Source: a virus. From it: 64,000 bases of DNA. This document shows, in pieces, positions 18,630 to 55,100 of this stretch (position 1 is its first letter; every line of letters starts with the position of its first letter). The notes under the pieces are model-generated. The model was not told the origin of the DNA and searched no databases. It saw nothing but the letters and a program-made list of their open reading frames with translations. The stretch lies in the IMG/VR virus record IMGVR_UViG_2667527373_000007, positions 2,547-66,546 of that record; one strand, written 5' to 3'. A program made the position numbers and the translations under genes.

Positions 18630-20543
18630 TTATCGACCAACAACTTCACTGAAGGAAACTCCAGTTCTTGTTGCAGTGACAGTAACTGTTACATAATTAA
18701 TCGAACGTGTTGGCTTGAGGAACAATTCCGCAACGAACTCGTTTCTGTCAATTACTTCAGGTGTGTTATTCGACTCATCGCAAACAACTAAGAAGTCAGT
18801 TAAACCTCTACGTGCTTGTACCTCTGAAAGGTATGACGCAATAGCAGCATTGAAGTTACTACGTGTAGTAGTATCGTTTTGCTCGAATAGTACTCCTTCA
18901 GCAAGACCTCTTGCTCTCTTCTCAATATTGAGGAACAAACGACGAACGTTAATTCTGTCGAATGCAGATGGAGAAGCAAGTGCTGTCTTATCACCAAATA
19001 GAACAGGACCAGCACCAGGGAATGATACTATTGGGTTAATTCTATTTGAATAAAGTTCGTCACGAGCTGCCTTATTTGGATTAAGGGCAAGTTTCACAAC
19101 GTTTTGAACTCCTCCACGATTTAATCCAGCAGGAGAAATCCAGTCATCGAGAATGCTGGAAGTAGATACACAAAGACCAGCAACGTCACCGTTACATGGA
19201 ATCCAACGATACTTATCATTGAATCTGTCATATGTATACTTAACACCACTGTCTAGAACAACATATGAACTAGAAGAAATACCAGCCAAGTAATCAACTG
19301 TATTGCTCAACTGATCAGCAGGAGATAATGCAGCACCACCAGATGTTGCAACCTGAGTTCCAGTCCAAGGTGAAATAAATGCTACACAATCCTTTCTGCT
19401 ATTAGCAACAGCAGCGCAGTTAGCAGCTTTTGACTTAGTATCTGTTTCATCAGCAGCATCACCACCACTAATGATAAAGTCAACAGTAGTATCTTCTGTA
19501 TCTAAGAATAGATCATATGCAGCATTGATCTCTCCAGCAGTATATGCATAATCATCTGTACCACCAGAAAGTGTTCCACCAGCATCTCCACGAATAGCAG
19601 AGAATGTCTTAGGTGCTCCAGATGTTGCACCATAAGATGCAGCAGCAGAACCAGGATCCTCTCCTAATGTTGTTGTCTGGTTAGCAGCAAGTCCAGCAGC
19701 ATATATGTAAGAAGATGATAGATTAACAGCATCTTGCCAGAAAGATGATCCACCTTCAGGTGTCTTACCATCTGAAATCTTGGAAAGATATGTTAGTCTC
19801 TCAACGATTGTATTTGTGCTCTCATCAACAACTGCAACGTGAACTTCATCTTTAGAAAGCCAACGCTCTGATGCAAATGCAGATGTTCCTGGACGAGGAG
19901 CAATTGCTTTATATGTTAAACCTGTTGATCCGATTGGAAGTGCGTTCCAGTCAGATGCAGTAAAATCAGAAATTACATAACTGTTACCAGATGCAGCAGT
20001 TGCACTACCTGAACGTATACCAACTGTATTAGCATCTATAACATGAGTTACTTGGTGATCATTTGTAGTTCCGTCATCAAGTGCGTCCCCTACTGATAAT
20101 CCATGACCTGCTTTAACTGCCTTCTTGTCAGGACCGTTATCTACAATAACAACTCTAAGATTGTTACCGTCAGCACCTGCATCTCTTGCAGCGAACTGTT
20201 CTCCTGATCCAACACCAGCATCATATGCATCTTTGTCTGAAATGAGAACTGCTGTTCCATCCAGCGTTGCGTTGAGAACTCCTGTTGCAGCACGTACTAC
20301 TGCTAGTCTTCCACCATATCTTAAGAATTCTGATGCGACTAACCAGTCAGCAGCATTAGCCTCAGCTGGTGCTCCAAACGTATCAATTAGTTCTCTCTCG
20401 GAACCAATTGGTGTAATTTTGCCTACGGGTCCGCTACGGAATGAAGAAGCAAATGCACCAGTTATTGATGATGCTCCTTGAACAACCGCGTTGGATAAAT
20501 CACGTTCTTTAATAACAATACCAGGCGAGACTTGACTTGCCAT
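18630..20543 (-). CDS. gp18: tail sheath protein
   Basis: MASQVSPGIVIKERD, WISPAGLNRG, GDKT, RINVRRLF, LKPTRSINYV. Confidence 0.96.
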   Translation of the reverse strand: MASQVSPGIVIKERDLSNAVVQGASSITGAFASSFRSGPVGKITPIGSERELIDTFGAPAEANAADWLVASEFLRYGGRLAVVRAATGVLNATLDGTAVLISDKDAYDAGVGSGEQFAARDAGADGNNLRVVIVDNGPDKKAVKAGHGLSVGDALDDGTTNDHQVTHVIDANTVGIRSGSATAASGNSYVISDFTASDWNALPIGSTGLTYKAIAPRPGTSAFASERWLSKDEVHVAVVDESTNTIVERLTYLSKISDGKTPEGGSSFWQDAVNLSSSYIYAAGLAANQTTTLGEDPGSAAASYGATSGAPKTFSAIRGDAGGTLSGGTDDYAYTAGEINAAYDLFLDTEDTTVDFIISGGDAADETDTKSKAANCAAVANSRKDCVAFISPWTGTQVATSGGAALSPADQLSNTVDYLAGISSSSYVVLDSGVKYTYDRFNDKYRWIPCNGDVAGLCVSTSSILDDWISPAGLNRGGVQNVVKLALNPNKAARDELYSNRINPIVSFPGAGPVLFGDKTALASPSAFDRINVRRLFLNIEKRARGLAEGVLFEQNDTTTRSNFNAAIASYLSEVQARRGLTDFLVVCDESNNTPEVIDRNEFVAELFLKPTRSINYVTVTVTATRTGVSFSEVVGR

Positions 20544-20603: not shown

Positions 20604-22256
20604 TCAGAAATTCCACATGTAAGACACTTCCTCTTGCTTGTCTCCATATGCCCAGAGATCCCCCTCTGCATCTAGATATGTGTCATCTCCCATCCCATCA
20701 TCAATGAATCCAAATGGAGCCATGTCCTGTTCTATCTGGTTTCTTTGTTCTTCATAGATTCTTCTTCTTACATCAAGATCTGTCATCTCCTTGAAATAAT
20801 CTTGCATACACAACCATGCAAATATAACTAAACACATTACCAAGTCATCATGGTATCCATCATCTGCTTCCCAACATTGTTTTCTCTGAATGAATGTTGT
20901 TAGTTCTCTTAATATATCAAAATCACTGAAAGTTAATTTATCATCTTCTATAATTGCTTTAAGATTTGCACACCCTTGTTTCTTAACAGTGATACTCATC
21001 TTAACTCCTAATTGAGTCTTGTTACCAGAGAACCCTTGACCTACTACTTGACCTGCTCTACCTCTCATAGAACACATGAGTACATTAGGATATTCAAGAT
21101 CGTAGTTTAATGTTGCTGCTATACTATCTCCTATGTCATTTACCTCAACCAAGACATAAGGATTATTATATTCTTTACATACCTGTAATATCACGGAGGG
21201 AAACATGACAGGTTTAATCTCATTATTACGGTACTTGGCAACGATTTGATACGGGAGAGTGGTGATATCAAACACGACAAAAGCACTGTAGTCGCCACCG
21301 ATTCCTCTGGCAACATCGACAGTAATAATATATTCGTGATCCTTTTCTGCTCTCTTATATACGTCAAGTCCAGCATTGCTTAATATGGGGTCAGTGAATG
21401 GTATTGCTTGCAGTTTAGATGGAGATATTAATGTATCAGCAGATCCAAGAAAGTCACATTCAAACTCCTGTGCAAACTGTCTCTTAGAAGTATTCTTTAA
21501 TGTCTCTTCTTTCCACTTAGCATCTCTACCTGGTACTTGAGACCAGTGTACTTCATTAGTAGTATAACCATTCTTACCATTCCTAGCATCTTCCCACATC
21601 TTATAGAAGTGGTTCATACCATTTGGTGTAGATATGATTATTACTTTCGTTGACTTACCAGAAGTAATAGTAGGATAAACAGAGGCAAAGAATTGCTCCG
21701 CAACATGGTTTGGAACGAAGGCGAACTCGTCGAGGAAGAGGATATTGAACGACATGCCTCGGACAGCACTTGCAGACGTAGAAGCAGCCAGTATCTTTGA
21801 CCCGTTTTCAAGTTCGACATTACCTTTGTTCCATACTAATATTCCGTGTTGCATCCATTTTGGTAGATTCTCATATGCTAATTGTAATCTACCTAATAGT
21901 TCCCTTGCAGTAGATGCTTTGTTAGCCAGAATACCAATGTTAACACTGTCATTAAAGATAGCGTAATGTAAGAGGTAAGCAACAACCGTGGTTGACTTGC
22001 CAGTTTGTCTAGGAAGTTTTGCAATGTTAAATCTGTTATTATGAAAATCCATCATGATATCCTTCTGGAAATCATACATGGTGAAAGGAACTAATCCTTC
22101 ATCAAGGTTGATGATTTGAATATAGTTTAATGCAAAATACAATGGATCTTCTTTACACTTTATCCATTCTTGTACTTGCTTCTTAGTAAATTGTATCTCA
22201 GTACCCGCCTTCTTCAGGTTGGGGTTACCTAAGTATACATCAGTTGCAGCAGCCAT
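20604..22256 (-). CDS. gp17: terminase large subunit
   Basis: YLGNPNLKK, PRQTGKST, LFLDEFAFV, TVDVARGIGGDYS, HDDLVM. Confidence 0.97.
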   Translation of the reverse strand: MAAATDVYLGNPNLKKAGTEIQFTKKQVQEWIKCKEDPLYFALNYIQIINLDEGLVPFTMYDFQKDIMMDFHNNRFNIAKLPRQTGKSTTVVAYLLHYAIFNDSVNIGILANKASTARELLGRLQLAYENLPKWMQHGILVWNKGNVELENGSKILAASTSASAVRGMSFNILFLDEFAFVPNHVAEQFFASVYPTITSGKSTKVIIISTPNGMNHFYKMWEDARNGKNGYTTNEVHWSQVPGRDAKWKEETLKNTSKRQFAQEFECDFLGSADTLISPSKLQAIPFTDPILSNAGLDVYKRAEKDHEYIITVDVARGIGGDYSAFVVFDITTLPYQIVAKYRNNEIKPVMFPSVILQVCKEYNNPYVLVEVNDIGDSIAATLNYDLEYPNVLMCSMRGRAGQVVGQGFSGNKTQLGVKMSITVKKQGCANLKAIIEDDKLTFSDFDILRELTTFIQRKQCWEADDGYHDDLVMCLVIFAWLCMQDYFKEMTDLDVRRRIYEEQRNQIEQDMAPFGFIDDGMGDDTYLDAEGDLWAYGDKQEEVSYMWNF

Positions 22257-22285: not shown

Positions 22286-22292
22286 CATGGAA

Positions 22293-22378
22293 CTGTGAGG
22301 GGTGGAGTCGAACCACCAAGTCCCGCCAGAGACATCAGGGAAACAACCTGACACGTTTACCAGTTTCGTCACCTCACA
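22293..22378 (-). tRNA. tRNA-Asn(GUU) with long variable arm and U37 (atypical)
   Basis: TGTGAGG/CCTCACA acceptor stem (U1-A72), G73, D arm ACG-AAACTGGTAAA-CGT, anticodon arm TCAGG-TTGTTTC-CCTGA, variable arm GTCTC-TGGC-GGGAC, T arm GGTGG-TTCGACT-CCACC; followed by TTCCA. Confidence 0.85.
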
Positions 22379-22382
22379 AAGA

Positions 22383-22400
22383 AGCCCTTATTTAAGGGCT
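22383..22400 (-). other. hairpin spanning the synthetase-paralogue stop codon, 4 nt before the tRNA
   Basis: Minus strand AGCCCTT-AAAT-AAGGGCT then TCTT; contains a TAAATA late-promoter-like core. Confidence 0.45.
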
Positions 22401-23188
22401 GAGATTAGACGAGTGACTCCTATACCACCTCCAGAACGAGGGAAGAAATCAAAGGAGAGGAACTTCTCAAGTTCATCTTCTACTCTTTCCTTACCAAACT
22501 TATCAATAATAAGTTGAGCATATCCACCATTTGATATGGTGTAGAATGTATCACGCATCTGTTTCTTATCGGTACTTCTTTCAGCACTACCGATAGTTTC
22601 CATGCCACCTAATATAACATCAATCTTTCTACTAGTACCATCATCATTCCTAGACATATTCCAAAATGGTGATGTCCATTCTGGAAACTCTGTAATCATT
22701 CCTCGACCAATCATTTTCTCATGGTCATGATTAAGTTCTTTAGTATTAAATTTATTAGCCCAATCATCATAAGTCTTGATCTTATTCTGTTCGTCTAATG
22801 GTATACCTAACCATCTACACAATTCAATCTCCATCTCTTCTAATTCTTTAACACCTCCCTTCATCTCAAACTCAAACATAGGGAAGATTGTTTCATGTCT
22901 TCCTGGTACAGGATTAGGTTCTGCTCTATATGAAGTAGAGACACAGAAAAACCCTTCAGCTGAAGGGTTGGAAAGTAATTCGTGCTCTAACCACATCTGA
23001 CCTGTTTGAGGTAGTGGCCAAATATTACCACCGTAATTATATGATGCTACTGTTTCAGGGTCTTCACATGCAGCAAGGATACTCAATCTATTCTGAGTAT
23101 GTACTTCATAGAAATTCTTAGACAAAAAAAATGACCGTAATTCGGTCACCGCATCCGTGAATTCTTTTGGATCAATCAGACTTGTCAT
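22388..23188 (-). CDS. class IIb (Asp/Asn/Lys) aminoacyl-tRNA synthetase catalytic-core paralogue (AsnRS-like / AS-AR-like), no anticodon-binding domain
   Basis: Motif 1-like ELRSFFLSKNFYEVHT, LPQTGQMWLE, motif 2 YRAEP...RHETIFPMFEFE, DVILGGMETIGSAERS, motif 3 PRSGGGIGVTRL; only 266 aa. Confidence 0.85.
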   Translation of the reverse strand: MTSLIDPKEFTDAVTELRSFFLSKNFYEVHTQNRLSILAACEDPETVASYNYGGNIWPLPQTGQMWLEHELLSNPSAEGFFCVSTSYRAEPNPVPGRHETIFPMFEFEMKGGVKELEEMEIELCRWLGIPLDEQNKIKTYDDWANKFNTKELNHDHEKMIGRGMITEFPEWTSPFWNMSRNDDGTSRKIDVILGGMETIGSAERSTDKKQMRDTFYTISNGGYAQLIIDKFGKERVEDELEKFLSFDFFPRSGGGIGVTRLISALK

Positions 23189-24432: not shown

Positions 24433-24535
24433 TTGGCCAAAAATCATCATACTTAAATATGTAGTAGATAACTACACCTACTGCTACTAACAGTATAGCA
24501 CACATTATATTAATAGACCAAACTACGTCTACCAT
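24344..24535 (-). CDS. small membrane protein
   Basis: 63 aa; TM segment VVWSINIMCAILLVAVGVVIYYIF; coupled to the purM stop. Confidence 0.65.
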   Translation of the reverse strand: MVDVVWSINIMCAILLVAVGVVIYYIFKYDDFWPNDGTQSRNEDSNLGSEGGTHDGSCEGTHS

Positions 24536-25425
24536 ACTTCTCCTATCTGAAGACCATAATCAATTTCAGGTGGAACTATCAGTACATAACCAATACCCAT
24601 ATTAAAAACTCTCTTCATTTCTTCTTCTGGTATCTCACCAGCAAGCATAACCTTACTGAAGATCTCTGGAAGATTCCAAGAATTATAATCAATACGTGCT
24701 GTCAATCCTTCAGGTATAATCCTATTAATATTCTCTTCTATTCCACCACCTGTTATATGTGCCATACCTACAATAGGTATCTCATCTAATAACTCATCTA
24801 TTTGTTTTGCATAGATTGTAGTAGGAGTAATTAACTCAGGTGTATCCTTATAGTATATCTTATGCCTCCATAACATATCATTAATCAGACTATATCCATT
24901 ACTATGGAGTCCACTACTAGGAAGACCAATTATCTTATCACCTTTTTTGATAAGACTACCATCTAATATCTCATTCTTCTCTACAACACCCGTACAAAAT
25001 CCTGCAAGATCAATATCTTTTGCAAACCTACCATGTTCAGCAGTCTCTCCACCTATAAGTTCGCAACCTGCAATCTCACATCCCTTGAGTATGCCAACCA
25101 TAAGGTCAGCAACTCTATCATCTAATTTTACACAAGAAACATAATCTAAAAAGTATAATGGTTTAGCACCACATGTAATTACATCATTGACACACATGGC
25201 AACGAGGTCTATACCAATAGTAGTATAGTCACCAAATACTTGTGCCATATTAATTTTAGTACCTACACCATCAGTACCAGATACTAAAACAGGCTCCTCG
25301 TAACCACGAGGAACCTCAAACATACCACCAAATCCACCTATAGAAGGTGCTTTTGTTTTTAAGTTTTTGACAAATTCATTTCCAGCATCTATGTCAACAC
25401 CAGAGTCTTTATAATTCATAATCAA
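24529..25425 (-). CDS. purM: phosphoribosylaminoimidazole (AIR) synthetase
   Basis: YKDSGVDIDAG, SGTDGVGTK, DLVAMCVND, GGETAE, SSGLHSNGYSL, AHITGGG, FNMGIG. Confidence 0.96.
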   Translation of the reverse strand: MIMNYKDSGVDIDAGNEFVKNLKTKAPSIGGFGGMFEVPRGYEEPVLVSGTDGVGTKINMAQVFGDYTTIGIDLVAMCVNDVITCGAKPLYFLDYVSCVKLDDRVADLMVGILKGCEIAGCELIGGETAEHGRFAKDIDLAGFCTGVVEKNEILDGSLIKKGDKIIGLPSSGLHSNGYSLINDMLWRHKIYYKDTPELITPTTIYAKQIDELLDEIPIVGMAHITGGGIEENINRIIPEGLTARIDYNSWNLPEIFSKVMLAGEIPEEEMKRVFNMGIGYVLIVPPEIDYGLQIGEVW

Positions 25426-38705: not shown

Positions 38706-38713
38706 TATTTATA
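38706..38713 (-). promoter_or_regulatory. T4 late promoter TATAAATA heading the oxygenase cassette
   Basis: Exact consensus overlapping the fibre stop; a second GATAAATA at 38693-38700. Confidence 0.7.
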
Positions 38714-41700
38714 ATATAGTCCAGTTACCACCGTTATCTACAGTGACAGTAACGCCACTTGTGATTTCGATAGGTCCAAATGAGAATGCGTTGGTGTTAT
38801 TTGGAACCGTTGCATTAGCACTGATTGAATCTCTATTAGATTTGATAACACCATAGTCATCCAACCATTGCTTATCCCCATTTGCTTCTAGTTGACCAGT
38901 AACATGAATGTTACCTTCAACTTCCAATGCTTCTACTGGATCTCTATCTGTTGAGAAGTTAATACCAACAAGAGATTGTCTGTAGATGTCATTATCATTA
39001 GGAGATTTAGTCCATCTTGATGTGACGAATTCAGCATTATTCTGGAAGAGTTGACCATTTAAGTTAACATCACCCTGAATATTTAACTGATAATCTCTGT
39101 TTACATTTGGTGATACAGTTGTATCTGTTCCAGAGAATACATTTGTGTTAATAGCAACTCTTCTGTTAGTACCTTGAACAGCAACAGCAGGAGTATTCTG
39201 CCATGTAACATTACCATTAGCAGTAGATGGAGTGATTTCAAATACATCGTTCCATCCAATCTGGTTACCAATTCTGAAGTTCCTTGCAGAAGAAGCACCC
39301 TTGAAGTAGATAGGAGCACCAGAGTTATCATTAGCAGAGTCAATACTCCAACTACCCTGAACCATACCAGAACCATTAACGTCTAGTTTATAACCAGAAG
39401 TTGCTGCTCTACCTATTCCAACATTACCACTAGAATTGACATGTAAAGAAGCAGAAGGAGCTTCTCCACTAAAGGAGTACATAACCTTAGACCAAGCACG
39501 GTCTACGATTTCAAACTTAGTATTGGATGCAGAATCACCACCAAGTTGTATAGTTAATGTACCATCTTCTCTATCTGCTGCACGACCAATCCATGCTTCA
39601 CCAGCGTTTGTCTGACTCTGTGAGAATGTACCAATTCTTATTGAACCACGTACATCCAACTTAACATTAGATGCTGGTGATGAAGTACCAATACCAACAT
39701 TGTTCTGTGAAACATCAACGAATAATGTACCAGAATCTACATTAACATCATCAGTTAATGTTGTTGTACCAGTAACAGAAAGGTTATTAGAAACTGATAA
39801 GTTAGAACCAGCACCAGTAATGTTTAGCGAACCAGTCATGGTATCGCCAGTCTTCAATACGTTGAGTGAAGATGCACCAATAATAGATGCTGTAATAGTA
39901 CCAGCAGAGAAGTTACCAGAAGCATCTCTCTTAACAGCAGTACTTGCAATGTTTGCTGACTGGAAGGTAATATTACCTGCGTTCCATGCTGTGTTACCAT
40001 TGATTGATAAACCATCAGCATTAACAACCTGAATATCTAATGTACCAGATCCATCAGTTGCGTTACCACCTTGTGCTATAAGAGCAACGTTATAGTTAGA
40101 TGCTGCACTAGCAGAAGACTTGAAGTAAATGGATGGAGAAGTTGCCTGACCATCTGATCTACCTAAGTTTAGTAAAGCTTGTCCACCATTATGATAAAGT
40201 TTTGCTACCTCATAAGTATTAGCATCTTGGATAGTAAAGTCATGGAATGTAACTCTCTGACTTGCAGTACCAATTGTTTCAGCACCAATAAAGTTACCAG
40301 AAGTTAATCTACCAATAAGTATTGTGTAATCATTAAAGTTATCACTAACATCATCATTGATTGAGATGTTATCAATCGTGAAACTACCAACTGCCTGTGC
40401 GTTAGCATTGTAAAGGTTAACTGGGTTACCTGGAATCCAAGGAGATGTATTTAATATTAATCCAGAAACATAGATCTCATACTTAGGATCTCCTAAGAAT
40501 GACTTAACTGTAGTTGAATTATTGAATACTGTTGGACTTAAGAATCTAGGTAATCTATTATCAGAAATAGTACCAAAGTTGATGTTAAGAGCATTCTGAT
40601 ACCAAGTACCTTGCTTGTTATCAAATCTATCAGCATCAAGTCCTGAATCTACACCATCGTTAAGTGATGTCCAGACCTTACCCCATGATCCCCAAGTTGT
40701 AACACCTGTTCCAGAACCACGCAACCACATGTTGTCGTTGTCTGTGAATGCAAGTTGTCTTACACCACCAAATGTAGCATCAAAACCAGAACCACCATTT
40801 CTTAAAGTTAGAACTAGGTTTCTAGTACCACCATCAGTAAGACTGTTAGCACTATTGAATATAGTGTTAGCGATAGCACCTTCAACGAAGTTGTTTGGAG
40901 CAGGGTTTGATGTAGGGTTGTTAGTACCAGTTAGTAGTCTGATAGTGTTCTGAGACTGACCAGAAATACTAATGTTATATGTACCAGATAATCTATCAGT
41001 AGGTAATGTACCAGCATTCTGGTTACCAGAGTTTAGATAGAATGAACCTTGAGCACCGTCTAAAAGGTCAGCGTCAAGTCCGCTATCAGGTCCAGTCTTC
41101 AGTTCGACAGAACCATTTCCTGCTATACCAATATTAAATTGTGCCTTCTTATATCTCGAAACACCAATGGTTCCATAGAGGTCAGAAGAAATTGTCTGAT
41201 CTGTTACACGCTTAACGTCCATAGCAACGTTAGCATACTGTCTAATAACAGTACTTACTTTCGCTTCTAGGACTAAGTTAGATCCAGTTCCAATTTCAGA
41301 TGGAGCAACTGTAATAGAGAAGTCAGCGTTATATCCACTACCAGCATCAACAACAGTTACTTCTGTTACTGCGTTACCAGATACAACTATATTGACCTTA
41401 AGATCAGTTCCTGTACCACCTGATAATGCAACACCAAAGTATTGACCATTGGTATATCCAGAACCACCATTAGATATGATAACGTCATCAATGAAGTTAC
41501 CTTGCGTGTAAGTTGACTCAAAGGTCATTGGAGACTCACCACGCTCAAACTCCAGAATAGTTCCAGCAACTATATTCTGAGTAACTGGATTATTAATAGA
41601 GACTGTAGTTAATCCACCAGCAGTGACAACACCTGTAATATTTGTGTTTGGATCAATTCCAGTATTGGTCTCATTAACTGTATGACCAACCAAAGCATTC

Positions 41701-44700
41701 TGGTTTGTCTGGAATATTAACTGGTTAGTACCTGTACTTGCCTGTGAATATAACTGAGCAAAGTATCTGTTCTCAGCACCTTTGAGTGATTGAACTGCAA
41801 GTGAGAAGTTCTGGTCACCACGTAAGAAGGTGAAGGAGTTAGCAGCACCACCTGATGCCAATCTATCTGTTTCAATAACACCAGATGTGATGTCAGAAGC
41901 AGCAATTTGGTTGGTAGATAGTGATACCCAGTTGTTAGCAACAGTAGCAGATGTGTTTACAACACGATTGATATTAACTGTTGTAGCAGTTGGTGTTGTA
42001 CTATCATCAAATGTATCAGTATCTTCAATCTTAAGTTTGTTAACAATGTCACCGTACAATCTACTTTCAATTAAACCAACACCCTGTGCTTGTGTTCCAG
42101 CTCCTGGAGGTGCAGCGAATGTGATTGTTGGAGCAGTGGTGTAAAGTTTACCACCTTTAAATCCGTTAAATTCTTCAATAGTAACAGTAACAACCTGTCC
42201 ATTAGCAACAGTACATGTTGCAGCAGCTTGAACTGCACCAGCTTCAGGGTTACCACCAGTAATTGTTACTGTTGGTGCAACTGTGTATCCAGAACCAGAG
42301 TTAGTAATATTAATCTGATAGAGAACACCTTTTCTATATTCAGTAGACTGAATCTGACCATTAGATATGCTACCAGTAAAGATATCACCGATAGTAAATG
42401 CTAATGAAGCATTAGGTGTAAATCCTAAGTATAGACTTGTTAAGTCATTGTTCAAGATGAAGGACTGTGAACTATCCTGCTGAATCGCAATGTCACCAGC
42501 AAGTGCTCCTTCTAGATCTAATCTTGATGCTTGATCAGGAACAGTGTAAACACTGAATGGTCTCAAAGCAGGAATCTGGTCAACAGATATCTTACCTGAG
42601 TCTGTCAATTCAACCAGTGCTCTTGGAACAGCGTTAGTTGAATAAGGCTTGTTTATGTATGGACCTAAGTTGTTTGTAATGTAGTCTCTAACTGCCTTCT
42701 GAGTTGGTAGTTTGGAGTCAGATGCATTAGATCCACCTAATGTATTAGAGTCGTCGAATCCAGTAACAACAACGTCACCACCTTTCAGTTTCAAGAATTC
42801 AACTTCAGAAATTGTAACAGTACCAGTGAAAGTAATGTTACCAGTTCTGTTCTCAATTCTAGCGAATGTACCAACCTTGAAGTCTCCTAGTTCGTCAGTA
42901 CCAGAAACGTAAACTCGTCCATAGTTCTCAGAGACCTGTTCATTTGCTTCAATCTTAGTACCACCGTTCTCAGGTAGAGCAAGGTAGTTAGTACCAGATC
43001 CAGCATATTCCCACGTATGAGATGAGGAGTTAACAATAGATGGTCTATGTAATCTTAATGTTTGACTTAATAATGCACTTGTTGCAACTGCATTACCAGT
43101 AGCATCATCAATCATGCTCATTCCACCACCAGTACCATCATCAATGGTTAACTGAGCAGAGAAAGGAGGACCAACGGTGACTGCTGCAACAGAATCAACG
43201 AAGTATTCTATACCATCTACAGCATTACTATATCCATCAATCTTCAAGACATAGTGCTCTAGTGGTTCTCTTCCTAATCCACTGACTGTAAGTATTGTTC
43301 TACCAGTAGGTGTGGAAGATACGTTAGTAATAGTACAAACATCAAATGTGTATGGTACTGCACTATATCCAACACCTCTAAGAGCGAACTGACCAAAGTT
43401 AGTAGCAGAGTTGGTAATAGAGATATATCCACCAGATGATGCTAAACAACCGTCTCCAGCAAAGATACAGAACACAGACACCAACTGTGCATATCCATCA
43501 TTGATTACGTTATATCCAGTACCACCAAATGTAACCATCGTGAATGCGTTTGCAACCATCGACTTACCTTGGTTCGGGAAGGATGCAGAACCATCAAGTT
43601 CTAATCCTGGGAATGGACAGTTAGGTTGCTTAACTTTTGCACCATCAACCAGAGCACCACTACCACCTAAGAATGAGATAACAGAAGAGTTCTGAGTATA
43701 TGGAGATGCCTCAATGATTGGATAGTCATCAAAGTCACCACGAATTGCAACTCTCTGATTATTAGCATCATAGATGTAACTATCAGGATATGTTGCTATT
43801 GTTGAAGTATCAAATAGAGTTCCATAAGTTTGTGTAGTATCACCAGAAGCTATTGTTTCGTCAAGGATATCCTCGAACAATGCCATCTCTGTAGTAATTG
43901 TAGATGCAACGTTAGCACAACGTGGAGTGGATCCAGTGTAAAGAGTAATGTTCCAATCTTCAAACTTAGGAATTGGTGAATCAGTTGTTACCTGATCGTA
44001 GATAACATAGCATCCATTTGCTTTAGCAGAATCAAATGCGTGTGTAGAAGCACTAGCACTACCAGCAGCACCTACATTAACTGTAACAATTGTATTACCA
44101 CCAGAAGTTGATACATTAGTGATTTCTAGTGATCTACCATATGCCTTCTTATCAGCAGGAACTCTTCTAGGATATGCGTGAGTAGAAGCACCACTATCAA
44201 CATCACATGTAAATGTTAATGCTTCTTCAGTAAATGCAAATCTATGAGATGTTGTAACTGCTGTAGTAGGAGTTGGGAATGTTACTGTAAGATCACCAGT
44301 GTTAGCAGTATATGTTGCAGTAGATGGTGTAACTACAGCAGGAAGTGTAGTACCTGCACTCCAGTTAGAAAGTGCATCTATAGAATAATCTCTAACCTTC
44401 TGATATGCATAGATGGTCTGAGCAAGCATTTTTGTTTCAATACCTGTCAACTGAGTTCCAGTGAAGTATTCTTCAGCAGCAGTTACAATACCTGTGTTAC
44501 CACCAAGTACAAGGTCACGAATAAGACCTGATAAAACAATATTAATATCTCTACGACACTTCCTTTCATCTACATCAGAAAGATTTGCTTCTGGGAATTG
44601 TACAAGAGTATCTCTTAATGCTTGGTCAGCAATAAGATGTCTGTTACGTGCGATTAGATATGCAGCATCAAGATAAGTATCAGCAGCATTATTTGAGATA

Positions 44701-47700
44701 ACATCTACGTATAATAATGAAAGAGTATCAATAGCAGCTCTTACATCATCACAAGCAGGAGTACCAGCAGTTGCAGTTCTTGTGGTTGGGTCAAAGTATC
44801 TTGCAACAGAAGAATGCTCTGGAACATACTGAAGATCTGTTGGTAATCTATTACCAGTTCTCCAGTTACACATAGCATATGTTGCTAATTCCTTCGCATA
44901 GAAGATACTACGAACTACCTGTGTTATTTCATAATCAATATATGTAATCTTGCCATCAACGATGAGTTTCTTACCTGCCTCAACGATGTTATGATTTGTT
45001 CCAAATTCTAAGTCTCTTACTAGAGCATTCAAGAAGTGTACAGTATCCTCACGGCATTGCTCATCACCATTTGCTCCACTAGCATCTGGAGAACTATATG
45101 CAGGATATGTCTTCTGACCTGATGCACAAGACATCAGAATATTTGCTAACTTGACAGTATCATCTTCAGCAATATTTGGAATAGCAGCTGAAACTGTTAT
45201 GGTTGCATCACCAGTTACAGCATTATCATATACAAAATCAGTAATGTTATATGAACTACCACCAAATTCTACTGTACCACCACTAACATACGTATGTACT
45301 TCAGGTGTTACACCAATATTTGCTTTGAATATACTACCACCAACAGATATAGCATTTGTTCCTGCTCTTACAAAAGTATGTGCAGATTGTGGAAGGTTCT
45401 TAACACAATTTGTAGCAGCAGATATGAATGAGTGTACAGATTGTGGTAAACACTTAACTGCCTCTGAAGTAGCACTTACAAATTCGTGTGTGTACTGACC
45501 ACCAATTACACATGCACCAGCAGTTGCAGATACAAATGTATGAGGATAGTCACCACCCACTATAATCGCTCCAGAAGACGCTGAAACGAAGTTATGAGGA
45601 TAATTACCTCCGCTAACTACAGCACCAGTTGCAGTGCCACCAGCCCATGTATGAGCATAGTTACCACCAGTTATCAATGCATCAACAGCAGCATTAATAA
45701 ATGTATGACCAGAAATATCAGATGAAGTACCAACATTCATCTTAATTGTGGTAGCAGTTACACCTGTAATTGTGACTGCTGTATTGTATGCAGGGTCAGG
45801 AGTACCAGCGTTAGCACCCTCACCAGATGAACGTGGATATGTCTTCTGAACAATATTACCATCAAGTCCACAAGTAAATGTTAATGAATTGTCAGCAAGT
45901 TTTACACTCTCTCCTGTTGTAAGACTGTGTTGACCAATTGTTAATTCTAATTCTCCATTAACAGGATTATAAGAAGCATTGGTTGGTGTGTACTTAAGTA
46001 AAGGAGTTGTTCCTACATTTACTGAGATTGTTGTTCCAGTTACTGCTGTAATAGGAATAGAAGTATCAGATACTGGGTCAGTTGATCTAGGATAAGTATG
46101 GTTTGAACCATTTCCATCCATAGCACAAGTAAATGTCAGTGCATTATCTGGAATCTTAATACTTTCACCTACTGTTAATGTATGAGATCCAATTGTCATC
46201 TCCATGACACCTGTTGCTGGATCGTATGTTGCGTTAGTAACGTTATGATTTACAAGAGGAGATGCACCTACATTAACTGTAATAACACCAGACTGATGCT
46301 TAAGACCACCTGTAGTCGCAGACTGGAATGAGTGTGTGTCTAGATTACTAGAAACACCAACGTTAACACTAAAACTATTAGCAGTTACGTTTGTAATTTC
46401 TAACCATTCAGCACTAGCAGGATCAGTAGGTCTTGGATATGTGTGATCACTACCATTAGCATCCTTAGCACAACGGAAAGTTAATGAATTATCATCAAAC
46501 TTAATTCTATTTGTATTCTGGAAACCGTGGTTTGTAATTGTAATAGCAAGGTTACCAGTTGAAGGAGTATATACTGCGTTCTCAACAGTGTGTGATGTAG
46601 ATCCTACATCAGTTACAGCAACAGAAGTACCGTATACTGGGTCAGTAGAACGTGGATATGTGTGGTTACTTTGGTTACCATTCATTCCACAAGTAAATGT
46701 TAGAGAATCATCAGCAATTCTAATAGATTCTCCTGTTACTATATTGTGATTACCAATGGTTAAAGTTAAATCTCCACTAGATGCAGTATATGTTGCATCA
46801 GTTGGTGTGTATTCTGAAAGTGGAGTAGCTCCAACATTAACTTGAATTGTTCCATCCTGTCTACTTATTCCATTAGCATTAGCAGATACAAATGTATGTG
46901 GAGAAGTATTAGAAGATGTACCAACGTTAACTTTGAAACTGTTTGTTGTTACATTAGAAATTGTTAACCACTCATCACCAGCAGGATCATTTAATCTTGG
47001 ATATGAGTGAGTAGATTGATCATTGTCTAGATCACAAGTAAATTGTAATGATTTCTCAGCAATTTTAATCTTGTCACCATTACTAAATCCGTGATTAGTA
47101 ACAGTTAAAATTAATTCACCATTATTAGGATTGTAATATGTACCACCTACTTGTATTGCACCTGTGGCAACACCACCGCCCCATGTATGAGCATAGTTAC
47201 CACCGCTAGTAATAGCATTAGTTGCAGTAAATCCAGGCTTCCATCTATGAGTTGAAGTATCTGGAGAAACACCAACATCCAAAGTAATTGATGTTGAGGT
47301 TACATTAGTAATAGTAACTGCTGTTTGATATGCAGGGTCAGATGAACGTGGATATGAGTGATCAGTTGCATACTGGTCTTTCTGACATTGGAATGTCAAT
47401 GATGCATCAGCAATTCTTACACTAGTACCAACAGCAAGACTGTGAGCACCAATGGTTAATGTCATAAGACCTGTTAGAGGGTCATATGCACCGTTTGTAG
47501 CAGTGTGTTGAGTATTTGATGTAGTTCCAACATCGAGAGTAATTGTAGTTGCTGTAGTCGCAGAAACTGTTAATTCCTGATCATATGCTGGATCTGTTGT
47601 TCTAGGATAAGTCTTAGTAGCAGTTTGACCATCCATTGCACATTTGAAGCCCAATGAATTCTGCTTTATTCTAACTTTACTAGCAGTTGTAAGACTATGA

Positions 47701-50700
47701 GTACCAATGGTAAGTTCCATAAGACCCGTTGCTGGATCGTATGTTGCATTACTTACGTCAAATGCTTGTTCTGGACCTGATGCAGTGTGCTGTGTTAATC
47801 CAATACCTACAATTGGAAGTGAAGTATCGTATGCTGGATCTGTTGGTCTTGGATAAGTATGTTGAGTAGCATTAGCATCTTGTTCGCAAGTAAATGTTAA
47901 TGCATTATTTGCTATCTTAATAGAATCACCAACTGATAAATTATGATCACCAATTGTTAGTGCTAATACACCAGATGAAGGAGTATATACTGCATTAGTA
48001 ATATCTTTGTTTACAATAGCAGTAGATCCTACATTAACTGTAATTGTACCAGTAGTTCTTATTATTCCATTTGCACTTGCAGAAACAAAATAATGTGTTG
48101 ATGTATTAGAAGAAATACCAACATTTAAAGTAAAATTGTTTGTTGTTACACCAGAAATCTCAATGAATCTGTCACTGATAGGATCATCCTCACGAGGATA
48201 TGTGTGTTGAGTAGCACGACTATCTAAATCACATTCAAATGTTAAACTTCCATCTACAATTTGAACAAAATCTCCATTGGAGAATCCATGATTATTACTG
48301 GTTATAACCAAAGTACCAGCAGCAGGATCATATGTAGCACCAGTTGCTGTCTTTGTTTCTGTTGTAATTGCTGTTACAGGAATTGATGTACCAGCAGAAG
48401 GGTCAGTTCCTGGTCTTGGATATGTATGTACAGAAGCATAATCATCCTGTTCGCAACGGAATGATAATGCATTATCAGACATTATAATATCTTGTCCAAC
48501 ACGAAGACCATGTTGTCCGATAACAAGATCTAAATTACCATTTACAGGATTATAAGTTGCATCAGATGGTGTCCATGTCTTATCTGGACCAGCAGCACCT
48601 ACGTTAACTGTAATAGAGTTAGCATCAGCACCAGTAATTGCAATTGACTTACCAGCAGCCATGTCTTGGAAATCAGTTCCACCGCCAGGACGAGGATAGA
48701 ATTTAGTCTCTTGATTACCATCCATTGTGCAACTAAAGCCCAATGAATTGTCGTCTATAACAACATTATCACCAACTTTAAGTGTATGAGATGGAATTGT
48801 TAAAATTAAGTTACCAGTTGCAGGATCATAACTTGCATTTGTTGGAGTCCACTGACTATCTGCTCCAGCAGCACCTACATTAACTGTAAATGTATCTGTT
48901 GTTGTGCTTGTAATAGGAATTGCTTTACCAGCAGCAGGATCAGATGCTTTTGGATAGTAATGCTCTGTAGCATTAGAATCCATAGCACAAGTAAATGTTA
49001 GAGATCCAGTTCCAATTCTTACACCAGCACCTGTTGATAATCCATGAGCTGCTTTTGTAATAACTAAATCACCAGTGGCAGGATCATATGTAGCACCAGT
49101 TGGTGTTATTGCTGACGCTGCTGATCCAGCAATATTAAAGATTGAATAGTAATCTTTAGCAAATTGTGCTCCAATCTTACCTAAAACTTCATCTGCAATG
49201 AAATCTCTGTTATTCTTAATGTAATTTGCAGCATCTTGGAAACGTCTGCTAACAGATGTTGTTAATGGGAAACTGTTAGGAGAGTTAAGTAATGATAGAT
49301 ATACAACTCTTGAAGCATTTTTAACTACAGCAAACTGACCTGGATCGAAGTTTGCATCTGTAAGAGCAGGATCTTTCTTAGGAATAACAAATCGTCTGCA
49401 ACGACCATCTGCATCCTCTATAACTTTATAAATTCTTTGCTTACCATTCAAGAATGATAAGTCTGGTGTACTAGTTGGAAGACCTGATATTTCTACTTCT
49501 TGACCTTCTTTAAACTCATGAGTATTAGTTCTACCAACAAGAGCACTTGTGTAGAATACAATACCTCCTACATCTTCAGCATTACCATACTGAGGACTCT
49601 GATAACCACCAGTTGCTATGGAAGGATCTCCCTGTAGAGAGAAGTCAATTCTAGAAATAGGTAGAGTAGAAATGAAATCTTCGTCTACCTCAGTAACTTC
49701 ACCCTCTGCTCTAATTGACTTAATCTTAGTTGTGTCAATGGTTTCAATGTTTGGTGTGGCAGCAAACATTTGAATAGTAGCAGCATTGTTACTATTCCAA
49801 GTTGGAGCATTAAGTGATTTTAATGGTTGGAATGTTACATCCCAATAAGTAGGAGCATTATCTGTATCAATTCCAACTACCTGATAGAAACCTTCTGTAA
49901 ATTCTTGATCATTTGTATCATCAAGTTTTACATATGTACCAGCAGGAATTACAGAAGAAGGATCAGCAGTAAATTTTAATATATTTTGACCATTAGTTCC
50001 TTCAATGGTTGCAGAAATTTGAGAACCTGCACCAGCAGATGTGATATATTCAAATCGTTCACCCTCAACAAAAGAACCACTAGTTAGATTAACATCAATC
50101 GTACCATTAATATATGCGTTAGCACCAGTAGTAGTATCAAATACAACATCAAATATATCTGCTCTAGCACCAGTGTTTAGACCAACAACTTCTAACGATG
50201 AAACAAGATTAGATAAACCAGTGTTTTGTTGGAAATTAACACGGAATTGATCTGGACCAAAGACCTGTGTACCAACTTTAAAGTCAACACCAGCATCTCC
50301 ATTGACATCAGGATCGAGGATAATACGTTGCTTATCGTCAAAGACCATCGCGTAATCCCAAGTAGCAACAGCGTCACCATTGGAGTCAATTTGGTCTCTG
50401 AATGTTACACCTAAGACGTAGTTCTTATCACCGAACTTGAATATATGTTTACCTGGGTTTGCAGGACGTACAATAACCAAACGTAAGTTGTCACCAACAA
50501 CTGATGCATCAGGTGGAATGGATATTGGGTTGTCTTCTACATAATCTCCACCAGAAACAACAATAGTTTCTTTAACACCAGGAGTTTTCCATGCCTCTTG
50601 ACATGCTTTTTTAATAGTTCTTACAGGGTTTACCGCAGATCGACCATCGTTAAGGTCAGAACCAATCTGTTGTGAAACGTAAATACGACCACCAACGTCA

Positions 50701-52120: not shown

Positions 52121-55100
52121 TTATTTCTTAGTAATATTTGATACGATAGTCACCTTAACGGTATGAGTCGCTAGGACATTAGCTCCTAATGTCATATTTA
52201 GTCTAACCTCATTGTTAGATGTCATTTCAAATTCTGGTACAATCAATTCAATTCCAGTTCTTAGATTTCCATATTCGTTGTATACAACATTCACTCCATC
52301 ATCTATAACACCAAACTCATACATTTCTTTATGTGCATTTGATACGTTCTCTGCTACGACAACAACCTTAGCACCTTTCTCAGTTGAAGTTGGATAAATG
52401 ACTGAGTTACCACTGTTAGATGAACCCTTAACCATAGTAACAACATCAGTTAATATCCTAAGATCAGCAAGTTCAAACTCTTTAAGATCGCTATCAAAGA
52501 CCTTAACTCCACTATATGTTCCTGTACCAAATCCTGTGTTTAGATATACATCACCTTGATCATCTAATCTTAAAATAGGATCTGTATAAACACCAGATGA
52601 TACACCTAGATCAAAGTATTGCTTAGAACTATGAAGGAATGTCTTAGTAGCAGATGTGTTGTCAAGAGTTGTTGCAGCACCATCAAATGTGAATAGAGAT
52701 GCAGTGATCTCAAATTCATCAGTAGTACTAGAAACAATAGTATCAACTGAATAAAACTCAAATGCTGACTGAGTTAATCTCAATGCATTATTACCAGCAG
52801 TATAGAAGTATAAAGTATCTTCATCACCACCAGCAGTTAATTCAGGAACAATATAAGTATCTTGGTCAACGTCTTTAACACCACCCAATGATCCCCAGTT
52901 CAATCCATCAAATCCTTCATATTGAAGTGTGGATGAGTTATATCTGATAGAACCTCTTTCAGCAACACCTCTTTGAGCAGTGTTACCAGATGGAACTACT
53001 AATGATGTAGCAGCATCAATCTTAACTTTTTTACCAGAGTTAGGTCTAATATTTAAGTCACTAACATCAGTTGAAATCTCATTACCAAGGAATCTTAGAT
53101 CTCCACTAATAACAAGTGGACATGTCTTATTAGGACCAACTCTAAGTTCTTGAATATCATCAAATGTTAATGGAGCAACACCCAATCCCCAGAATGTTAA
53201 TTCCGCAGTACCATTAGCAAGAGCACCAGATGTGTGTATTGGTTCATTACCAGTAGTAGCAGTAGTACCAGGAATAGTTACTTCATATAAATTGTTTAAC
53301 CACTTAACATATTGTCCTGCTGTTACAGGTGCGTTAGCATTCCACTCTGTATACGCAGGTGCAAGTACGTTTACAGAACGTACCTTCTTCATGTTTACAA
53401 ACTCAAGGAAGTTAGGACTTACCTTAAGTGTATTAACGTTATCGTTAAAGAACCAGATAGTGTTATCGTTAGCACCAACTGTCTCTTCTGCCAACATGTA
53501 GGTGTTTCCATCTAAGTCTCTTACACCACCTAGAGATGACCATGATGTTGTACTAGAATGATAACCTTCGTACTGATTAGATGTAGTATTAAATCTAATC
53601 ACACCATCCTTCGTAACAGCAGGGCCAGGTCTGGATGCTGTATCACCAGCAGGAACTGCGAAACCAGATAATGCATCTACACCAGCAATTCTTCCTTGCT
53701 CTGGTTTAAGAGTAATATCCTTAGCATTGAAAGAAGTTATTGTAGCATCATCACCAGTAATCTTAAGATTATCGCCAGCTCTAATATCATCAGATTTTAA
53801 ATAACCACCAGTAGCAACTGTTAAGTTACCAGTAGCACCCTCAATCTGTATTGTTGGTACAAATGGAGTACCAGATCCAACTTTAAAGAATTGAGTTGTT
53901 ACTTCAACGTCCTTATCTGCATCAGTCTGAATACCTAATTTTGTACCAGTAATAGCACCAGCAGTAGCAGGAGCTTTTAATAATGGAGTTTCTAATGATG
54001 CACTAGCAATAGCAACAGTAGAAGTTAGATTAGGAATAGTAGCATTACCAATTTCACCATCAGTTGAAACAAGATTTCTAACAGTGAATGATCCATCAAG
54101 AACTTCACCCTTAATAATTTCTTCTATAACAACATCATTAACAAGTAACTGGAATCCAGTACCAAATGTCTTAGGGTTATTTTGATCAATGGTAATTGCT
54201 GATTCTTGACCATCTTCACCACCTTCATTAGTATGGTCAATACTATCAGTAGCACAATAGTAATAAAGTGTTGGAGTATCTTCAGTTACTTTAATACTTA
54301 AAGCTTCAGATCCAGCAGCACTAACTCTCGTTACACCATCAGTATACTCAGCACCAAAAACATTAAATTCAACTGCACCACCAACTGTAGGCAATTTGTC
54401 AATAGTAAACTGAGTTGCACTATCAACACTTACAATCTTTGTATCAGCAGCAAATGTACCTGCTCCTTGGTCAGCAAGATCTTTCTCTACAACAAACCCT
54501 ACTTTATATCCAGTTGTAGAACCAACTGTAATTTGAGTTGCTGTTGATGCTAATGTTGCTGTCTGACCTTCTACTCTATCCCATCTTCCATCTGGAAATG
54601 AACTTAGAGAGAATATATGACCACCAAGTGTAGCACTATTTAAATCAAATTTATATTCATTACCAACAAACAATGTTAATGCTGGAACAAATTGATCAAC
54701 ACCATTTCCAGTATCAATAGTAAATCTAAAGTCATCAGCAGAACTTTGTACCTCATATGCCGTAGTACCAGCAGCATCATTAACAAAGAATCCACCAGCA
54801 TTAAGACCAAAGTAGTCGATGACCATATATGTGATCCATCCACCAGCTGCTACAATCTTACGCACAGCAGTACCAGTACCAGCAGAACTTACACTACCAA
54901 CTGCTAATACAATATTATCAGCAGGAGAAGCACCACCAACTAAAGTTCCATCAATAGTTACTACTTCTGTATCTACATAAAATCTTCCTTCATCTCCAGT
55001 AGTTATAGTTACTGATAAAACAGCACCTGTATTATCACGAGTAACATCAAATTTTGCACCAACACCAGATCCAGCAGATGTTGAAGCAACTCCACTGTAT

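Follow-up and report, generated by a model that had tools for sequence, protein, structure and literature searches.

A stand-alone class IIb synthetase-like core and a linked tRNA with a Leu-type body and an Asn anticodon form a candidate charging pair in marine phages

INTRODUCTION

Core-only class II enzymes can serve an odd dedicated tRNA without reading its anticodon, as is known for bacterial PylSc and tRNA-Pyl. Another natural private pair is formed by ProRSx and tRNA-ProX (PMC10404621). Here we describe a locus of similar layout in a 64,000-nucleotide stretch of viral DNA, called the window below (positions 2,547 to 66,546 of the IMG/VR record IMGVR_UViG_2667527373_000007), in which a gene for a 266-aa protein resembling the catalytic core of asparaginyl-tRNA synthetase (AsnRS) is directly followed by a gene for an unusual tRNA with a GUU anticodon. 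We suggest, with a probability of roughly 0.45 and on the basis of sequence and modelled structure, that the two constitute a dedicated enzyme-tRNA charging pair. As in the PylSc system and that of ProRSx (PMC10404621), the enzyme and an atypical tRNA are encoded side by side; of the known enzymes, PylRS ignores the anticodon. The phage protein differs from PylRS, for which structural alignment gave a Z score of 15.0, and from ProRSx in that these belong to other synthetase families. Furthermore, the known pairs alter the code, by stop-codon reading or deliberate mistranslation, whereas anticodon and amino acid pocket of the phage pair both point to Asn and no recoding is implied.

Stand-alone class IIb cores are also found in enzymes of other function. 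AS-AR (3p8t/1nnh) and AsnA are similar in size to the phage protein, which could run the same Asp-to-Asn chemistry, and EpmA/GenX (PoxA), the lysyl ligase of EF-P, is likewise a truncated class IIb core without an anticodon domain. To our knowledge neither AS-AR nor AsnA is tied to a tRNA gene, whereas the phage family is almost always tRNA-linked. Annotations of the phage genes go back to the genome papers of P-SSM2 and P-SSM7, and the enzyme appears as 'tRNA ligase', T4-GC 194, in a published gene table (PMC3037559). This entry was the sole mention of the enzyme-tRNA pair returned by our literature search, which yielded no study of its function.

RESULTS AND DISCUSSION

The 266-aa protein is an intact class IIb core closest to AsnRS

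Pfam assigned residues 12-265 of the protein to positions 27-292 of 308 of the PF00152 profile (tRNA-synt_2; D, K and N) with 51.5 bits, above the gathering cut-off of 25, and an E-value of 1e-13. This match fills residues 12-265, so that an N-terminal OB domain would have no place in front of it, and the protein consists of the catalytic core only. An AlphaFold model, for which an alignment of 55 diverse homologues served as input, reached a predicted local distance difference test score (pLDDT) of 95.7, and its residues 1-266 align with the core of AsnRS only, e.g. with residues 119-414 of 1x54. Exhaustive structural alignment placed AsnRS cores on top (Z 25.9-26.3, root mean square deviation 2.1-2.2 Å over 241-242 residues), followed by yeast AspRS (23.3), archaeal AS-AR (3p8t; 23.1 over 240 residues), GenX (22.9), LysRS (22.0) and AsnA (19.8). 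Class IIb enzymes thus scored 20-26 and class II enzymes outside this subclass 15 or less. The model shows the class II fold with its antiparallel sheet. Foldseek led to the same placement. A stand-alone AsnRS-like core with motifs 1-3 and without an OB domain had already been proposed in a first-pass annotation of the window, which was made from the DNA alone, and is borne out by the Pfam, AlphaFold and structural alignment results.

At the sequence level the relationship is distant. The phage core shares 18-22% identity with AsnRS and falls short of its core by about 30 residues, and a plain phmmer search of the protein against PDB sequences returned no match, so that a family profile was required. 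With this profile AsnRS was again ranked first (57 bits), followed by archaeal AspRS (53), AS-AR (30) and EpmA (28). None of the curated NCBIfam models was reached, the best scores being 27.8 bits for non-discriminating AspRS (ND-AspRS), 24.1 for AS-AR, 19.5 for AsnRS and 18.4 for EpmA at cut-offs of 264-414. In detail, the protein lies outside AsnRS (TIGR00457, 17.1 versus 342.6 bits; NF003037, 19.5 versus 414; reached by 0 of the 55 family members), outside AS-AR (NF005055 and related models, 24.1 versus 389 bits) and outside EpmA/GenX (TIGR00462, 14.5 versus 286.9 bits; NF006828, 18.4 versus 264). When the 55 family members were scanned with hidden Markov models (HMMs), weak matches to AS-AR were obtained for 11 and to EpmA/GenX for 12 of them; the AsnRS and ND-AspRS models were matched more often and more strongly than that of AS-AR.

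The ATP, Mg and motif 1-3 residues of the AsnRS catalytic domain are all present. Motif 2 reads R88-x-E90...G96-R97-H98...E106-x-E108, to which D190, E197 and R204 are added, motif 3 reads R251...GGGIG...R260, and a pocket motif QTGQMWLE covers residues 61-68. Among the tRNA-linked representatives, R88, E90, R97, H98, E106, E108, D190, E197, R204, R251 and R260 are conserved to 100% or at least 95%, the residues L67, E68, E106 and R204 to 100%, and 109 of the 266 positions to at least 95%. K188 and the CEDP loop at 41-44 are further conserved elements. In the profile match, QTGQMWLE is aligned to QSSQLYLE of Brugia AsnRS. We take L67-E68 and E106 to be positions that discriminate AsnRS from AspRS, and both are AsnRS-like here. 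The Asn-type pocket as defined from AsnRS and AspRS structures, i.e. Leu-Glu after QS.Q, a Glu ending motif 2 and an Arg in G.S..R, is likewise present. In contrast to EpmA/GenX, the pocket is Asn/Asp-like and not Lys-like, and the neighbouring gene is a tRNA instead of efp or epmB. Overall, the protein is an intact and distinct class IIb core that is nearest to AsnRS and falls outside AsnRS, AS-AR and EpmA as defined by their models.

The main rival to a charging pair, which we consider less probable, is that this core acts as a tRNA-independent, ammonia-dependent asparagine synthetase of the AS-AR/AsnA type, forming beta-aspartyl-AMP that is then amidated. The cassette would then supply asparagine, and the co-expressed tRNA-Asn would be charged by host AsnRS or by ND-AspRS plus GatCAB. 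The shared stand-alone class IIb core of fewer than 300 aa, the Z scores of 3p8t and AsnA and the weak AS-AR matches in 11 of the 55 members are in keeping with such an activity, as is the acidic character of the protein, but not a single member reaches the AS-AR cut-off (24 versus 389 bits) and AsnRS and ND-AspRS are the better matched models.

A minority of the representatives (P0170, P0172, P0175, P0190, P0212, P0224 from locus L089, P0229, P0254 and P0269) has a degenerate motif 2, motif 3 or set of Mg ligands, and one homologue of this kind is a bacterial copy adjoining lpxB and rpmB/rpmG. Judged from their sequences, these homologues are likely inactive or repurposed paralogues.

The tRNA resembles a chimera of a Leu-type body and an Asn identity set

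ARAGORN predicted a tRNA-Asn (GTT) at 22292-22379 of the window, and Rfam RF00005 matched 22293-22378 with 47.7 bits (E-value 1.7e-8); a covariance model built from the family gave 107 bits on the same tRNA. Covariation was analyzed in 54 distinct homologous tRNAs, where 99.3% of cells were paired and 19 of 25 pairs showed compensatory changes. None of 500 shuffles matched the observed pairing values, and slid registers also fell far short. Because the covariation in 54 copies exceeds that of the 500 shuffles, the match is not due to chance, and the tRNA is structured and under structural selection.

The acceptor stem UGUGAGG/CCUCACA yields a U1-A72 pair and is followed by the discriminator G73. 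The D stem ACG/CGU has 3 bp plus an A.A mismatch, the variable region comprises 14 nt with a 5-bp stem GUCUC/GGGAC that includes two G.U pairs, and the T loop is canonical. Direct reading together with ARAGORN and Rfam thus confirmed what the first-pass annotation had stated about the position of the tRNA 9 nt past the stop codon, its GUU anticodon, U1-A72 and G73; the class II body with a 5-bp variable stem and a Leu-like 3-bp D stem, which it had also described, held up in direct reading and in the covariance model. The tRNA shares GUU, U1-A72, G73, a normal T arm and G18G19 with ordinary phage tRNA-Asn. It differs from the latter by its Leu-type D arm, its long variable extra arm, a U instead of a purine at position 37 and an unfixed nucleotide 33, and it is located behind the enzyme gene and not in a tRNA array. 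A canonical tRNA-Asn class I body with a short variable loop of 4-5 nt and a 4-bp D stem is not present in the window tRNA, nor is a purine at position 37. In canonical tRNA-Asn, A37 is the site of t6A. The tRNA is not a tRNA-Leu either, since it carries G73 instead of A73 and the anticodon GUU; only its D arm and core are Leu-like, and the family covariance model accordingly gave 50-64 bits on ordinary phage tRNA-Leu genes. From its sequence it looks like a chimera in which a Leu-type body bears the bacterial Asn identity set. The set recognized by bacterial AsnRS comprises the anticodon and G73 and is transplantable to a different tRNA, and U1-A72 is the amidotransferase determinant (PMC9976931).

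These features were counted in 120 distinct tRNA copies linked to enzyme genes. G73 is invariant (120/120), the anticodon is GUU in 119 copies and GUC in one, and the pair 1-72 is U-A in 117, A-U in two and U.G in one. Position 37 is occupied by U in 105, A in 11, G in three and C in one copy, and position 33 by U (99 copies), C (12), A (seven) or G (two). The length of the variable region lies between 5 and 41 nt, and armless tRNAs of 74-77 nt are found in several relatives. As its length is not conserved and it is missing in some relatives, the variable arm cannot be a shared identity element, and the earlier suggestion that the enzyme recognizes the tRNA through this arm is therefore not upheld. 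CCA is encoded in 60 of the 120 copies, being present in non-cyanophage relatives and absent from all cyanophage copies, where G73 is followed by TT. Encoding CCA or not thus follows the style of the host, which fits an RNA whose acceptor end matters.

The anticodon loop raises the question of whether the tRNA itself could be the relevant product, with the enzyme being secondary. It could serve counter-defence through a loop resistant to anticodon nucleases, act in recoding by slippage at A-AAY, or, in the long-arm lineages, be charged with Ser by host SerRS on account of G73 and the long arm. Phage tRNAs whose anticodon-loop changes evade tRNA-cleaving defences are known, and U37 in 105 and a base other than U33 in 21 of the 120 copies are strong departures of this type. 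Furthermore, a Leu body with G73 corresponds to the kind of change that shifts Leu identity towards Ser (PMC9976931). We nevertheless regard such a role as improbable, since Ser charging cannot be general when many relatives have no long arm, no nuclease or slippery site was identified, and the enzyme would remain unexplained. Whether the enzyme charges the tRNA or makes free asparagine, a tRNA family that keeps U37 and varies at position 33 under strong selection challenges two near-universal rules for anticodon loops.

An apparent offset CCA end (G73-UU-CCA) of the window tRNA was dismissed as chance, as TTCCA is confined to the window and its near-identical copies, other cyanophages having TTTAAA, TTAAAT and the like. 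The sole copy without GUU lies on a GC-rich 191-kb phage contig, where the gene of an enzyme with 52% identity precedes a 135-aa open reading frame (ORF), after which comes a 105-nt tRNA (L093:4021-4125). This tRNA has U1-A72, G73, a Leu-type D arm and the loop CGGUCAC, in which G33 and A37 flank GUC, an Asp anticodon. When anticodon and pocket were checked for covariation in this single GUC case, the pocket residues of its enzyme were found to be unchanged except for E203Q.

Enzyme and tRNA genes are near-obligately linked

Among cultured phages the pair, annotated as 'tRNA ligase' and 'tRNA-Asn', is present in P-SSM7, P-SSM2 and P-SSM5, and in 50,697 phage records the special tRNA occurred solely in these three enzyme-bearing phages. 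The pair is found in varying contexts, namely after gp23 in P-SSM7, near primase in P-SSM2 and P-SSM5 and before the terminase gene in the window. More than 597 close relatives are present in IMG/VR. In the 80 cyanophage loci analyzed from these, the tRNA starts 8-15 nt past the stop codon wherever downstream DNA was readable. A second, more distant set was collected with a 61%-identical relative (P0121) as query and comprises 62 loci at 52-73% identity to it; here the tRNA, mostly with encoded CCA, was located 4-236 nt downstream in 52 of the 62 loci of marine phages. Deep lineages also have the tRNA, i.e. L274 and L301, where the first pair is A1-U72, and the lineage with the GUC anticodon described above.

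The linkage was also assessed from the side of the tRNA. A scan of IMG/VR with a pattern of the tRNA alone returned 80 loci. Except in L319 and L342, every genuine copy with at least 800 nt of upstream sequence is directly preceded by the enzyme gene in the same orientation. Co-occurrence and adjacency of gene and tRNA across phages, which had been put forward as a check of the pair, are therefore strongly positive in the cyanophage, distant and reverse-scan sets. Enzyme and tRNA are near-obligately linked in both directions across deep divergence. In metatranscriptome contigs from four runs, fragments of relatives span gene and tRNA, which is no proof of transcription, processing or CCA addition.

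The special tRNA of the two exceptional loci, located at L319:2161-2262 on the minus strand of that locus and at L342:1705-1790, has no enzyme gene within about 2 kb upstream; the tRNA of L342 has a normal CUGUUAA loop and is followed by another tRNA. Some non-cyanophage relatives have unrelated ORFs of 35-53 aa inserted after the enzyme gene and before the tRNA. They belong to several types, namely IPVYKNG.G.HE...LQRQ (L216, L214, L194, L212), FIRNMDLLVALN... (L211, L222, L204 and others) and C..C...H...H (L192), none of which is shared by every lineage. This heterogeneity rules out a conserved third partner encoded between the two genes.

Near-obligate linkage would also suit an enzyme that acts on the tRNA in a non-standard way, either by amidating Asp-tRNA made by host ND-AspRS with ammonia, i.e. 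by AsnA-type chemistry bypassing GatCAB, or by adding an amino acid to a tRNA nucleotide. GluQ-RS, a core-only paralogue that acts on Q34 of tRNA-Asp, is a generally known precedent for the latter, and TGT requires U33-G34-U35. Nucleotide 33 is not conserved in the phage tRNAs, which would prevent the insertion of queuosine in some family members, and an adenylating tRNA-dependent amidase is without known precedent. Although the transamidation route uses the invariant U1-A72/G73 plus GUU as its identity set (PMC9976931), we give either of these activities little credence.

A candidate dedicated charging pair

If enzyme and tRNA form a dedicated charging pair, both genes would be expressed as one co-transcribed cassette, and the 266-aa protein, which has an AsnRS-type amino acid pocket and no anticodon reader, would be a catalytically active class IIb enzyme that forms adenylates. 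The amino acid that it attaches to the tRNA of the downstream gene would most likely be Asn, Asp being the less likely choice. For recognition the enzyme would rely on the acceptor end (G73 and the weak U1-A72 pair) and on the tRNA-Leu-type core, with neither the anticodon nor the variable arm contributing. Once charged, the tRNA would decode AAC and AAU codons for the phage. We infer binding and charging of the tRNA by the enzyme, the identity of the attached amino acid and the use of the tRNA on ribosomes from the features described above.

Several observations weigh against this interpretation. The protein of the window is acidic (isoelectric point 4.9, net charge -14), as are the tRNA-linked enzymes in general (median isoelectric point 4.74, net charge -18), and it has no RNA-binding appendage. 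Positions 89 and 91 in the motif 2 loop are conserved to just 50-70% despite the invariant G73 and U1-A72. As the tRNA carries the complete AsnRS identity set, full-length host AsnRS or ND-AspRS could charge it unaided. The tight linkage could in part reflect a dependence in cis, should the tRNA lack its own promoter. Finally, there are enzymes that retain all catalytic residues but are not accompanied by the special tRNA. Such homologues were found in a 222-kb phage record with terminal repeats, in two huge phages, and in a freshwater phage (L090, L091 and L092), where a 56%-identical enzyme lies between purA, encoding adenylosuccinate synthetase on the opposite strand, and a gene for a pyrimidine-synthesis fusion protein of 751-758 aa (phosphoribosyltransferase, orotidine monophosphate decarboxylase and dihydroorotate dehydrogenase). 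When the covariance model was applied to tRNA-less genomes (the two huge phage and four IMG/VR records) in search of the special tRNA elsewhere, just ordinary tRNA-Leu, tRNA-Tyr and tRNA-Asn genes were detected.

The intact homologues without tRNA, one of them in a context of nucleotide metabolism, as well as the retention in the tRNA of the anticodon plus G73 set read by host enzymes, are also what an asparagine synthetase could be expected to show. Yet free asparagine production leaves unexplained why an odd tRNA lineage with U37, a variable nucleotide 33 and a Leu-type body accompanies the enzyme instead of an ordinary tRNA-Asn, and why this tRNA is nearly absent away from the enzyme. Prochlorococcus may lack AsnRS, and in that case free Asn would not feed translation.

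In an enzyme tree, the tRNA-less members mostly form long deep branches, to which a few scattered losses are added, and the cyanophage clade (support 100) is nested within the CCA-encoding marine phages; this is a quick tree with a midpoint root and its direction is tentative. Two tRNA-less homologues (L227 and L239) are located on contigs that IMG/VR labels as GVMAG, i.e. giant-virus metagenome-assembled genomes (MAGs).

In its broader form, our proposal is that marine phages carry a widespread, naturally orthogonal pair, in which an anticodon-blind core is obligatory for a tRNA with Leu body, Asn anticodon and U37 and provides a route to Asn-tRNA independent of host AsnRS or ND-AspRS/GatCAB. 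We put this forward only tentatively. If it were true, no natural synthetase of the Asp/Asn/Lys group known to charge a tRNA would be smaller than this enzyme. Charging of the tRNA by the enzyme would mean that abundant ocean viruses own a private charging system; it would show the minimal size of a class IIb synthetase, with identity derived from acceptor end and core alone, and would provide a compact, ready-made orthogonal pair for genetic-code engineering. If the enzyme made free asparagine instead, the cassette would represent a new auxiliary metabolic module supplying an amino acid plus its tRNA. As the pair is present in cultured P-SSM2, P-SSM5 and P-SSM7 with cultured Prochlorococcus hosts, it is directly testable.

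Features of the cassette and the stop-codon hairpin

The coordinates of the individual elements are compiled in Table 1.

Table 1. Elements of the enzyme-tRNA cassette in the window
Feature	Position	Strand	Evidence or details
Class IIb aminoacyl-tRNA-synthetase-like catalytic core, 266 aa	22388..23188 (including stop)	(-)	ORF list, Pfam, AlphaFold (AF2), structural matches
Stop-codon hairpin AGCCCTT-AAAT-AAGGGCT	22383..22400	(-)	Terminator-like scan
tRNA, 86 nt (U1 to G73), GUU anticodon, CCA not encoded	22293..22378	(-)	ARAGORN, Rfam, covariation
Anticodon loop UUGUUUC	22340..22346	(-)	U33 22345, G34 22344, U35 22343, U36 22342, U37 22341
Variable arm GUCUC-UGGC-GGGAC, 5-bp stem, lineage-specific	22320..22333	(-)	Sequence reading, alignment of relatives
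Spacer from stop codon to U1, 9 nt	22379-22387		

A hairpin that holds the stop codon of the enzyme gene in its loop or 3' arm recurs in about 100 distinct relatives, 3-5 nt before the 5' end of the tRNA. Its 5' arm is coding, and the stems differ by compensatory changes (GGCAC/GTGCC, GCTCT/AGAGC, ATCCCT/AGGGAT). The hairpin is likely an mRNA 3'-end or processing element, and its role may be to mark or shield the 3' end that RNase P cleavage produces on the mRNA.

Genomic setting

A T4-like cyanomyovirus is the source of the window, a fragment with a CheckV completeness of 35%, in which genes for gp23 capsid, UvsW, gp15 and a neck protein were identified. From reading the translations by eye, we take the ORF at 18630-20543 to encode the tail sheath and that at 20604-22256 the large terminase; the start of the latter gene is annotated as terminase large subunit in relatives. 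Auxiliary genes for NifU-like and SNase-like proteins and purM lie directly upstream of the enzyme-tRNA locus, and a further auxiliary ORF upstream presumably encodes plastocyanin, again judged by eye from its translation.

The best 80 genome matches of purM (24529-25425, minus strand) include no cyanobacterial sequence and belong, at about 50% identity, to Aquificota and Proteobacteria. A single match of 71% (L099) is located on a 17-kb contig that is binned as a gammaproteobacterial MAG (TMED78) and is probably a mis-binned phage contig. Three consecutive giant ORFs of 4286, 1839 and 2042 aa occupy positions 38709-51569, 52121-57640 and 57840-63968 of the window, all on the minus strand, and presumably encode virion or fibre proteins.

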